Below are positions 30,031-56,571 of a DNA stretch of 64,000 bases, one piece after another. Within the stretch, counting starts at the first letter, position 1, and the number at the start of each line of letters is the position of its first letter. The notes beneath the pieces were generated by a model. That model made no database searches. It was not told the DNA's origin and saw only the letters and a list, made by a program, of their open reading frames with translations. The stretch is from positions 6,553 through 70,552 of the forward strand of contig JALHRC010000003.1 of NCBI GenBank assembly GCA_022841645.1, given 5' to 3'. This DNA comes from Minisyncoccota bacterium (GTDB lineage: Bacteria > Patescibacteriota > Minisyncoccia > Phycocordibacterales > UBA918). Made by a program: the position numbers and the translations under genes.

Positions 30031-30184
30031 GCTATGCTCCTCAAGTGGGGTCAAGTTTCTAATTCGCTACGCTTATAAGAACTTGCTCCCCTGGCTCGCC
30101 TGTTTTCTGCTGTAGGGACGGAGCAGAAAACATGGCTCCGCCTCGCACTCGAGCCCGCACGCAAAACTGTTTGCGTGCTATACC
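30031..30184 (-). mobile_element. tRNA-end-associated structured mini-element (inner, at tRNA-Val)
   Basis: Core homologous to 51047-51145; inverted copy of the tRNA 3' flank split by a 25-nt hairpin; mobility is inferred. Confidence 0.65.
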
Positions 30185-51043: not shown

Positions 51044-51335
51044 TGTGGTCACGAGTTACTAATTCGCTACGCTCATAAGTACTCTCGACCCCGGCTCGGC
51101 CGTTTTAGCTTTAGGAAAAAGCTGAAAACATGCCTGCGGCCGTCACCGCGACACGTCAGCGACATTAGTCGCTCTTGTGGTCACCAGTCACTAAGCGTAT
51201 TTGTTCACTACGTTCCAAATCCGCTAAGTGCTGTCGACCCCGCCTCGCGGTTTCCGCCGCTTTGACGGCGACGGAAACATCGCTGCGGCCGTCACACGAG
51301 CCGAAACTGAAAGCTTTCAGTTTCTAAAACGAAAC
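51044..51335 (-). mobile_element. Two tandem structured mini-elements behind tRNA-Glu
   Basis: Two related units GTGGTCAC...CGACCC...CTGCGGCCGTCAC; inverted tRNA-end copy split by a 25-nt hairpin (51301-51325); mobility is inferred. Confidence 0.68.
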
Positions 51336-51376
51336 AGCCTTCTTTGGATGAAGAAGGCGGTTTCGTTTTTGTCGTG

Positions 51377-51448
51377 TGACCCCACCGGGAGTCGAACCCG
51401 GCTTTAAAGCTTGAAAAGCTTTCGTCCTAACCGATAGACGATGGGGCC
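51377..51448 (-). tRNA. tRNA-Glu(TTC)
   Basis: GGCCCCA...AAAGC-TTTTCAA-GCTTT...CCGGG-TTCGACT-CCCGG-TGGGGTCA. Confidence 0.95.
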
Positions 51449-53808: not shown

Positions 53809-54729
53809 CTATTTGGTGCGGAGCGTGACGTAGATGTCCTCGAGCGCCCGCACACCGTCGCCAGCAGAAATATTGTTCTGGTGGTACTTCACGTTGGTAC
53901 AATCACCGGCGGCCCAGATGCCTGGGGTAGTGGTCTTCTGCGTCCAGGGGTCAATTTCGATGCGGCCATAGGTGTCGAGTGCGACTACATTTTTGGCAAA
54001 GTCGGTGTTGGGGAGCATGCCGATCTCGATAAAGATTCCCGTGACGGGTAGTTCGACAATTTCACCAGTCTGGTTGCGGTAGCGGAGGCCACTCACAAAC
54101 TTCTCACCAAATACTTCGGTAGTATTGGCCTCGGTAATCCCGCGCATGTTGGGGTGGGCTAGTACCTTTGCAACCGTCACCGGATCAGCCTTAAACGTTG
54201 GGCCATGCTGAAGGAGGGTGACACTCTTGGTGTACGCCAGGAGCTGGGCGGCTGTTTCAAAACCAGCGTTACCGCCACCAATTACCGCAACATCTTGTCC
54301 GGCAAATAGCGGACCATCGCAGGAGGCGCAGTACGTGAGGCCTTTATGTTCAAAGATGTCAGCTCCGCTAGCGGAAAGCTGGCGGCGTCGGCTGCCACTG
54401 GCTATCAGGATGGATAGGGTGTCGTGAGTGGTACCATTTTCTAGCGTCACACGAAAGCCACCGTCATTTTTTTCAATATTGGTAGCGAGGGCTTTATCAC
54501 TGATGTCGACAAAGCCGTCGGCGTAGGTATGCAAGTGGGCTTTTAGGGTATCCGCCAAGGCAGCGCCAGAAAGAGAAGGCGTGCCAATCCAGTTTTGAAT
54601 GTCAGGTGAAACTGTGCTCTGCCCACCCCACTCTTTAGTAATAAAGAGAGTTTTCAGTTGCTTTCGTGAGGCGTAGACACCAGCGGCTATGCCTGCCGGC
54701 CCGCCACCAATAATGATGAGTTCGTACAT
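53809..54729 (-). CDS. trxB: Thioredoxin reductase (TrxB/AhpF C-terminal-like)
   Basis: Motifs IIGGGPAG, YCASCDG, VIGGGNAG, WAAGDC. Confidence 0.88.
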   Translation of the reverse strand: MYELIIIGGGPAGIAAGVYASRKQLKTLFITKEWGGQSTVSPDIQNWIGTPSLSGAALADTLKAHLHTYADGFVDISDKALATNIEKNDGGFRVTLENGTTHDTLSILIASGSRRRQLSASGADIFEHKGLTYCASCDGPLFAGQDVAVIGGGNAGFETAAQLLAYTKSVTLLQHGPTFKADPVTVAKVLAHPNMRGITEANTTEVFGEKFVSGLRYRNQTGEIVELPVTGIFIEIGMLPNTDFAKNVVALDTYGRIEIDPWTQKTTTPGIWAAGDCTNVKYHQNNISAGDGVRALEDIYVTLRTK

Positions 54730-54790: not shown

Positions 54791-54828
54791 GAAACCCGGC
54801 CGGTCCCTTTAGGGACCGGCCGGGTTTC
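54791..54828. terminator. GC-rich hairpin downstream of the ftsZ region
   Basis: GAAACCCGGCCGGTCCC-ttta-GGGACCGGCCGGGTTTC. Confidence 0.6.
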
Positions 54829-54855
54829 GTACGTGTGGTGCGTGGTTTAAGAGTT

Positions 54856-55151
54856 GGCACCGGTCACAAGTCACTAACTATAATTGGCCGCTACGCTCCA
54901 ATTCTAGTAAGTGCTCGCGACCCGTGAAAAGCAATATTGAATTGCTTTTCACCGCGGCCCGTTTGTCCCCAAAGACAAACGGGCAACGCTGCGGCCGGCA
55001 GTGCCTGCTATTTCAGCTTGCTTCGCCGCAGAAATGCAGGTACTGCCTCTTACAGAGGCAGTCCACTCATTGGTCTTTTTGCTTCGTGGGAAGCTTGCAA
55101 AAATACTCAATGAGTCCGCCGTGCCCTCGCTGCGTCGCTCACTGCGCTCAA
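54856..55151 (-). mobile_element. Stacked structured elements behind ftsZ, including a synonymously recoded copy of the ftsZ 3' end
   Basis: 55008-55046 encodes [12 protein letters not shown]; core 54862-54996 homologous to the tRNA-Glu units; mobility is inferred. Confidence 0.72.
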
Positions 55152-56423
55152 TTACTTGAGCTTGGATCGACGCAGGAAAGCGGGCACGGCGCCCCAGTCG
55201 TCATCGCTATCTTCGTCGATTGGGTCAACTGGCTTCGGGTCGCGCTTTGGCAAGTCTGCCGGGCGCGGTGTCGGTGCTGCAATGGGCGTCTCGTTCACTA
55301 CCGGCTCTGGCTCACGGCGGGGCATTGATAGTGAATTAAAAATCTTGCCGCGGGACTCAACGCGTTCATCGCGGTCTTCAAAATCATCGTGGCGCTGACC
55401 GATTATGGGCGTTGGGGCTGGTGTAGCCATTGGAGCACGGCGCGCAATCGGATGGCTGACCATCGTCTCCTCCGGGAAGCCGGTTGCAATCACGGTCACT
55501 TTGATTTCGTTCTTCTTCAATTTATCATCGCGGATAGCACCGAATATCACCTTGGCATGGGGATCGATCGATTCAGTAATGACCCGCGCTGCGTCTTGTA
55601 CTTCCAGCATACCGAGGTCGTCGCCACCAGCAATCGCAAAGAGCACTCCCTTGGCTCCTGTGATCGATACTTCAAGGAGAGGTGAATTAATAGCCATCCG
55701 AGCAGCTTCTTCGGCGCGCTTTTCGCCGGAAGAGACACCCACGCCCATGAGCGCTGAGCCGGCGTTTTCCATCACGCTACGGATGTCAGCAAAGTCGACG
55801 TTAATGATACCTGGCATGGTGATGAGGTCAGAGATACCTTCGACGGCTTGCTTCAAAACATTGTCGCACTGTTCAAAGGCGCTGCGCACAGTGGTTTCCT
55901 TATCGACAATCGCGAGGAGGCGATCATTGGGGATGGTGATGAGTGCGTCTACTTCTTTCTTAAGCTCCTCGATGCCTTGGAGTGCTAGGCGCATACGTTC
56001 TTGACCCTCAAAGAGAAACGGCTTAGTGACCACGCCGACGGTGAGAGCACCACTTTCACGAGCGATCTTGGCGATCACCGGTGCAGCACCAGTACCGGTA
56101 CCGCCCCCCATACCGCCCGTGATGAAGATCATGTCCGAGCCTTTGATGGCGTTTGCGATCTCTTCCCTGGTTTCTTCGGCAGCGCGGCGACCCATGTCGG
56201 GGTTGCCACCAGCACCAAGACCACGGGTCAGGTTTTTACCGATGTGGATTTTTTTCTTGGCAAGTGAGTTATGAAGATCTTGTGCGTCACTGTTGACCGC
56301 AATGAACTCCACACCCTTCACCTTCGCCCCGACCATGTAGTTGACGGCATTGCCACCAGATCCACCAGCACCGACAACGCGGATGCGCGCGAACGATTCA
56401 ACGTCAGACCGTATCTGTTCCAT
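55152..56423 (-). CDS. ftsZ: Cell division protein FtsZ
   Basis: Motifs [18 protein letters not shown]-terminal VPAFLRR. Confidence 0.98.
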
Positions 56424-56571
56424 ATAATGTGTGTATAACTAGTTACGCCTCACCCCGCACCCCCACCAAGGAATGCGAAACAGCAGGTAGCACTATCATA
56501 GCGCGTAGCGCTGTGCCTGTCACCATATTGACTTTATTGCTTATCGTGTGTTTGACAGTACTCAACTATTG

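Follow-up and report, generated by a model that had tools for sequence, protein, structure and literature searches.

The ftsZ locus of the window

We analyzed a 64,000-nucleotide stretch of DNA ("the window") from a Patescibacteria genome of 1.12 Mb. On its minus strand, the 12-residue C-terminal tail of FtsZ, together with a stop codon, is encoded twice, at 55190-55152 (copy 1) and 55046-55008 (copy 2), with a start-to-start distance of 144 bp. The C-terminal tail of FtsZ binds FtsA. In a pairwise comparison, the two copies differ at 11 of 39 nucleotides and in 10 codons, and every difference is silent, as the original prediction had noted. Were 11 differences to fall at random, the exact probability of their all being silent would be 3.1e-8 (0 of 200,000 simulations), which bears out the further claim that neutral decay of a local duplication is excluded at this locus. 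The similarity stops upstream of the Ala codon, and copy 2 lies outside the ftsZ reading frame because an in-frame TAA precedes it by two codons. Among the tblastn matches listed for the tail peptide, only two are full, namely copies 1 and 2. Each copy is followed by an imperfect inverted copy of itself, again in line with the first reading of this DNA: 55118-55151 folds back onto copy 1 (-50.5 kcal/mol with RNA parameters), and 54997-55008 is an inverted copy that folds onto copy 2.

A chimeric assembly of two strains had been named as a possible source of error, and this was tested with unitigs. Both copies are spanned by one unitig per run in 4 of 4 runs, with 0 differing letters (X1, 54916-55836; X2, 54926-56500; X3 and X4, 54894-56500). 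As the four runs belong to one study and are possibly the source samples of the window, they exclude a simple mis-join and do not count as independent samples. The parts of the locus are as follows.

55152..56423, minus strand: ftsZ, 423 aa (open reading frame; Pfam Tubulin and FtsZ_C above cut-off)
55152..55190, minus strand: copy 1, the working ftsZ end, presumably brought in by cassette 1 (the left junction falls within the Ala codon, 55190-55188, or immediately past it)
55118..55151, minus strand: antisense arm of cassette 1, pairing with copy 1 back to the Ala codon (fold)
55065..55117, minus strand: body hairpin of cassette 1 (the genome has a similar module at other places, C4 and C8)
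55045..55064, minus strand: end hairpin of cassette 1 with a three-base GTA loop (the foot of the hairpin pairs with the opening bases of copy 2)
55008..55046, minus strand: copy 2, intact and untranslated, the probable former working end, belonging to cassette 2 (1 difference from the L004 and L072 ends)
54997..55007, minus strand: antisense arm of cassette 2 (inverted repeat; shared with L072)
54953..54996, minus strand: conserved entry motif and first hairpin of cassette 2 (inverted repeat)
54924..54952, minus strand: perfect-arm palindrome nested inside cassette 2 (comparable inserts in L104, L160 and L183)
54862..54923, minus strand: terminal hairpin of cassette 2, ending GTGACC (most conserved module of the element family)
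54846..54861, minus strand: third ftsZ-end remnant, decayed, reading VPTLK (sequence comparison)
54791..54828, minus strand: 18-bp perfect hairpin, putatively terminator-like in function (inverted repeat)
53809..54729, minus strand: pyridine nucleotide-disulphide oxidoreductase, downstream (open reading frame; Pfam), presumably trxB-like
51047..51448, minus strand: tRNA-Glu, then two further members of the element family; the tRNA end is matched by an arm (genome C3 57599-58000)

By comparison with other loci, we read this locus as two tandem cassettes with three gene ends, the third decayed, and the stub at 54846-54861 as the oldest displaced end. The most similar ftsZ that we fetched is only 0.82 identical to that of the window. 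The three closest spellings to copy 1, at 5 differences, include L037 and L122 copy 2, both of which precede the same element type. In L004 and L072, where the ftsZ core is 0.81 and 0.79 identical, the working end matches copy 2 at all but 1 base, and the arm of cassette 2 has 10 of 11 bases and the following motif in common with L072. Since copy 2 has this near match in distant hosts and an antisense arm of its own, it is probably an end imported by an earlier cassette, and not the displaced resident end that had been predicted.

Short perfect palindromes nested in the element (54924-54952; L104, L160, L183) replace a few bases at the same place each time, and L155 and L183 differ by one such insert.

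Make-up, junctions and movement of the cassettes

A degenerate tail pattern matched 145 of 165 genomes of the family, and the control matched none. By hand count, two or three tail matches occur in 44 of the 165 genomes of this Patescibacteria family, one of the 44 being a duplicated locus and one being split over two contigs; L271 has four. We read 116 family ftsZ loci; a loose test finds the element motif in 69 of them, and a full distal copy is present in 42. Twelve out-of-family loci (L019-L030), duplicates (L126-130, L136-138) and loci without a readable ftsZ end were left out, 5 of the 116 could not enter the tree for want of a usable ftsZ core, and L146-L154 and the metagenome loci were inspected by eye. 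With at most 1 mismatch, the terminal motif is nearly universal in the family (154/165 genomes); its exact form is found in 13 of 301 genomes of the class, mostly behind tRNA or tmRNA genes. Titled records, which overlap the family set and are not additional evidence, gave 35 matches (21 behind ftsZ, 2 at contig edges and 12 unrelated) under the labels Kaiserbacteria, Paceibacteria, Nomurabacteria, Parcubacteria, Saccharibacteria or simply bacterium. One genome, G146 (L132, L136), has an ftsZ end plus element twice, 70 kb apart and in opposite orientation, identical over the stretch shown; its contamination estimate is 8%.

As delimited by these comparisons, a cassette consists of the last 12 codons in a spelling of its own, an arm antisense to that spelling and a modular hairpin core. 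L162 carries an exact tandem of copy plus element, which defines the unit as a copy with the element downstream of it. Over 46 pairs of copies, cassette length is 132-408 bp, 408 bp being the largest copy spacing, and no gene, cargo or recombinase was found inside these units; the spacing is in frame in 14 of the 46 pairs only. The arm pairs better with the preceding copy than with the next in 42 of the 46 pairs, with 2 ties and 2 worse. In 32 proximal cassettes it matches the wobble base of its own Val codon 29 times (shuffled mean 10.9) and that of its own Ala codon 26 times (shuffled mean 13.5). Its pairing also takes in the host G immediately before the crossover in 30 of the 32 proximal ftsZ cassettes. 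The element's own end lacks this base, and 4 of 5 distal cases mismatch there. Arms that target tRNAs extend over the upstream TT, which, with the pairing to the host G, is as would be expected of a guide.

The gene-sense strand gives the more stable fold in all 43 of 43 terminal hairpins. These are hairpins in the attC-like sense, in which one strand folds preferentially and the stem is imperfect. Apex loops are of the three-base type C(G/A-N-A)G in 28 of 59 terminal hairpins and four-base in 3, in a crude census that leaves 8 of the 59 unassigned and 14 probably out of register. The stem sequence below the GTA loop varies, with pairing retained, position by position, in 37-44 of 54 matches, a count that takes in chance matches. 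According to the available portion of one source, GCGNAGC mini-hairpins are very stable as DNA and their RNA counterparts much less so (PMC13037366). The loop and fold data favour folded single-stranded DNA as the probable acting form, and an RNA function would be compatible with them too.

Between hosts whose ftsZ genes are less than 0.82 identical, the difference between copies is 4.9 bases where the elements that follow them are similar (22 pairs), versus 10.3 (11,197 pairs), a measure that includes the arm, which co-varies structurally with the copy, and in which kin are not independent. Tail spelling tracks the element more than the host gene, which upholds the prediction that a small non-coding element brings in a foreign ftsZ end. 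L012 and L067 have a 131-nt body in common, with 5 differences, and ftsZ genes that are 0.81 identical. For 41 same-element pairs, codon identity stays at the background level as far as Gly (0.39 vs 0.37), then reaches 0.44 at Ala (vs 0.26) and 0.66 at Val (vs 0.28). L048 and L043 are 95-100% identical per 100 nt of ftsZ up to the Ala codon; beyond it, their tails and elements differ, and the two rejoin at one shared decayed terminal copy. On these comparisons the left junction is fixed at the Ala/Val codons, in line with an earlier proposed check for a junction just before the AVPAF codons. At tRNA targets the junction lies in the T-loop, and the right junctions at ftsZ and tRNA genes have a common frame, C-N-R-N-N-C-C after GTGAC.

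L004 carries an extra cassette ahead of one that is proximal in its nearest relative, L118; from this order and the L048/L043 comparison, the newest cassette is the one that adjoins the gene. The base before Val is identical between adjacent copies in 13 of 32 cases (shuffled 8.7, p 0.045), a marginal result that bears on a two-base, serine-type overlap. A displaced copy matches the Val wobble base of the incoming copy in 10 of 32 cases, no more than chance, so that full arm-to-target pairing is not required and any guide would be limited to the junction bases. Nor is a foreign end involved in every case, since 8 of 46 adjacent pairs differ by at most 3 bases (0.6% expected). Taken with hybrid copies (L048 copy 2, L012), these near-identical pairs mean that a resident unit is also re-inserted, or that copies undergo unequal exchange or conversion.

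Working (proximal) ends are intact at all 116 loci, 115 of them canonical and one a KLR variant. Adjacent full copies show 306 silent versus 11 non-silent codon differences, and all the non-silent ones lie in the displaced copy. Differences that are silent only would be explained by each copy having once served as the working ftsZ end, under coding selection while proximal. Non-silent change in the distal copies of relatives had been put forward as telling against displacement. Such change does occur, in that 9 of 46 distal full copies are damaged and 31 of 51 sites found by the element end alone are not intact (20 are), and it fits displacement and does not refute it. Within the 31 non-intact sites, bases 1-5 are kept in 29-31, bases 10-11 in 25, and bases 17 and 20 in 7 and 6, in a table that has two rows shifted by one base. 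Uniform decay would not give such a step in base retention, which suggests that the right junction is functional and under non-coding constraint. Strand-biased G-to-A decay of the remnants was rejected, their composition being that of ordinary intergenic DNA (G 0.12 in both).

Other targets and the search for a carrier

Related cores with matched arms or tail copies are also present at fusA, rplL, rpsI and tRNA 3' ends. In the window's own genome, related modules lie behind tRNAs, rpsI and rplL, each arm matching its own target; we take these targets to be tRNA His, Arg, Glu, Lys, Gly and Val, rpsI and rplL. Near position 30142 of the window (minus strand), another family member lies behind tRNA-Val. 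The EF-G gene (fusA) has its tail KDVEEEA plus stop three times, silently recoded and with family elements in between, at G000:C6:44758-45092 (+) (L223), and second EF-G tails, recoded or decayed, are also found in L220, L221, L222, L226, L227 and L229. At rplL (G000:C22:5027, +), the element is followed by a tail reading GAKITLK plus stop, versus GAKVTLK plus stop, and at rpsI (C18:8418, +) by a decayed tail.

Candidate genes in the window's own genome comprise 1 tyrosine recombinase, 3 large serine recombinases, 2 Y1 transposases and 1 reverse transcriptase, and none of them is linked to cassettes. No element motif was seen beside the single tyrosine recombinase gene, which is on another contig. 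Large serine recombinases occur in 115 of 165 family genomes; at none of the 33 loci inspected does the gene lie within element ends, and the recombinase islands inspected end at tRNAs, with no cassette core around them. The palindromes that flank the two Y1 genes of the genome are unrelated to the cassettes. A Y1 (RAYT-like) gene with a palindrome family of its own lies at G000:C15:32579-33247 (-) (L144). The reverse transcriptase adjoins a repeat pair that differs mainly at adenines (G000:C11:26750-28500 (-), L145), and this locus is a probable diversity-generating retroelement.

We found no gene-bearing element between tail copies in the 116 family loci sampled or in the metagenome loci listed. 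The contigs of the four runs hold no circle, empty-site allele or excision joint, rare forms being prone to drop out of contigs, and viral contigs gave 0 matches for two patterns. No Rfam family reached its gathering score in the stretch, the best match having 24.8 bits versus 50. Use of copy 2 by read-through or frameshift was rejected in view of the intervening stops and the number of pairs in frame (14/46), as was a diversity-generating retroelement as the origin of the ftsZ copies, with 5 of the 11 differences on copy 2 adenines and 1 on a copy 1 adenine. The literature on hairpin mobile DNA in Patescibacteria/CPR yielded no description of the cassettes, in a search whose scope took in few subscription titles and no supplements.

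Interpretation and comparison with known systems

Comparison between loci establishes the make-up of the unit, the fixed junction, movement between species, newest-first stacking at the gene and the decay of displaced ends. We regard the cassette phenomenon as real, widespread in the family, mobile and apparently undescribed in print. It is very probable that the mechanism belongs to the class of gene-end replacement by site-specific insertion, and we give a probability of about 0.7 to the fuller model, in which the cassettes at the fixed ftsZ site are mobile and depend on folded DNA and an enzyme acting in trans. Under this model, a cassette would be copied or excised as a small circle, the gene-sense strand of which would fold as single-stranded DNA. 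An enzyme encoded elsewhere would recognise the common core and recombine it at the short target C-N-R-N-N-C-C, found in the Ala-Val-Pro codons of ftsZ and in the T-loop of tRNAs. The enzyme might be of the tyrosine-recombinase or the HUH type, which is a guess, and natural transformation would be a plausible route between species.

Several known systems share parts of this behavior. In integron attC sites and in the single-stranded DNA elements that exploit Xer, one strand folds, the array grows at one end and imperfect stems carry conserved mismatches; the integron core site is GTTRRRY. The ftsZ cassettes likewise have a preferentially folding strand and an array that grows at one end. Unlike attC, their junction is C-N-GT-N-CC, and no integron integrase or cargo genes are found at the array; unlike integron cassettes, they target the ends of essential genes, and each supplies coding sequence. 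IS200/IS605 derivatives and REP/RAYT repeats are short palindromic units mobilised in trans, whereas neither of the two Y1 genes in the window's own genome is flanked by cassette hairpins. Differences between the copies are not confined to adenines, unlike those of a diversity-generating retroelement, and the cassettes are also unlike known structured RNAs in having no Rfam match at gathering score.

The closest parallel in gene-end replacement is e14 in the icd gene of E. coli (icd/icdC). As the available part of that report describes it, e14 is an element of about 15 kb that excises under SOS induction; the gene runs on into the end on the element side, and on the far side there is a C-terminal pseudogene fragment that differs by silent and conservative changes (PMC13626634). 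Judged against that part, a cassette resembles e14 in entering the 3' part of a protein gene, restoring its end and displacing the old one at a fixed crossover, and differs in being 132-408 bp long and gene-less, with no integrase of its own, an antisense arm, stacking and one core family for many targets. ICEs, IMEs and CIMEs stack site-specifically at the end of a target gene; in the accessible sections of one account, CIMEs are decayed ICEs or IMEs that keep both att sites without integration genes and are mobilised by an adjacent element, and the target table for IMEs and CIMEs includes rplL and an element named for rpsI (PMC5704250). The tandem accretion of cassettes at one target end (two or three full copies plus remnants) is CIME-like so far as those sections go; unlike CIMEs, the cassettes have no parent or adjacent autonomous element in the sampled loci, and near-identical ones occur in distant hosts. 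Strand-biased circularising elements are known, and the cassettes resemble them without meeting the definition in the portion of the paper available (PMC9345347). For IS110 bridge-RNA elements, the comparison, drawn from part of the source, is that target choice may be made by base pairing (PMC11208160). Unlike IS200/IS605, REP/RAYT and, on that partial account, IS110 elements, the cassettes carry a replacement copy of their target.

Can the same loci be explained without a dedicated enzyme? Homologous or homology-facilitated recombination during natural transformation would then supply the ends, unequal exchange or gene conversion would build the stacks, and the hairpins would be kept as useful 3'-end structures. 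Hybrid copies and module shuffling (L043, L036, L048), the exact tandem duplicate in L162, the 8 near-identical pairs and the fact that no helper was found would all suit such a process. We consider it unlikely: there is one fixed junction, upstream of which the 98%-identical pair L048/L043 shows no foreign patch, codon identity steps up at Ala/Val, and the same core ends at the equivalent C at unrelated tRNA targets in other families. The cassettes might also be CIME-like remnants of integrase-bearing islands in ftsZ that have shrunk to attL/attR plus hairpins. Replacement 3' ends and tandem accretion are documented, in the parts of the reports available, for e14/icd (PMC13626634) and for IMEs and CIMEs (PMC5704250), and large serine recombinases are frequent in the family. 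This origin is improbable all the same, for neither the 116 family loci nor the metagenome loci listed include a long or gene-bearing version, one conserved core serves many unrelated targets, and the inspected recombinase islands end at tRNAs without a surrounding core.

An element acting at the RNA level, whether a spliced or bypassed intron-like RNA, a recoding RNA that uses the distal copy, or a retro-inserting RNA, would account for the high degree of structure and the transcript sense at the 3' ends of genes for which high expression is expected; a GCAA loop is present in one module, and the genome has a reverse transcriptase. Yet proximal copies are always intact and distal copies decay, few pairs are in frame, no Rfam family reaches its gathering score, the apex loops are mostly three-base, and the sole reverse transcriptase adjoins a DGR-like repeat pair, all of which makes this reading very improbable. 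Assembly chimera or neutral local duplication at the window locus can be given next to no weight: nothing specific favours either beyond the existence of near-identical pairs in other genomes, and against them stand the single unitigs in all four runs, the P value of 3.1e-8 and the same arrangement in 42 of 116 family loci.

Replacement of gene ends by mobile cassettes, our preferred reading, would mean that, in genome-reduced Patescibacteria, the ends of essential genes are interchangeable and move horizontally, with a spare tail in over a third of the ftsZ loci read and units of much smaller size than the known integrative elements that replace gene ends. The core common to unrelated targets points to a possibly retargetable recombinase. 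A bolder proposal, which we hold to be possible and rather doubtful, is that the cassettes form an undescribed class of self-addressing mobile DNA, with a common single-stranded DNA core, one trans-acting enzyme and an exchangeable address (target copy plus arm), so that the same family could enter any conserved gene or tRNA end without damage. If true, this would be a DNA-guided, scarless replacement of gene ends that constantly re-spells the ends of essential genes across species. The arrays record insertion order and offer a natural test of selection before and after displacement; they can also mislead gene-end annotation and phylogeny.

Two further loci are recorded here as separate observations. 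At G000:C2:21148-22910 (+), a 505-aa secreted-type protein has its last 10 codons (TFGWVSNIGG plus stop) repeated about 210 bp further on, across a hairpin-rich spacer of a different type from the ftsZ cassettes. At G000:C8:32940-33410, a broken tRNA-Glu, split by hairpin inserts, precedes an intact tRNA-Glu that is overlapped on the opposite strand by a serine recombinase gene.
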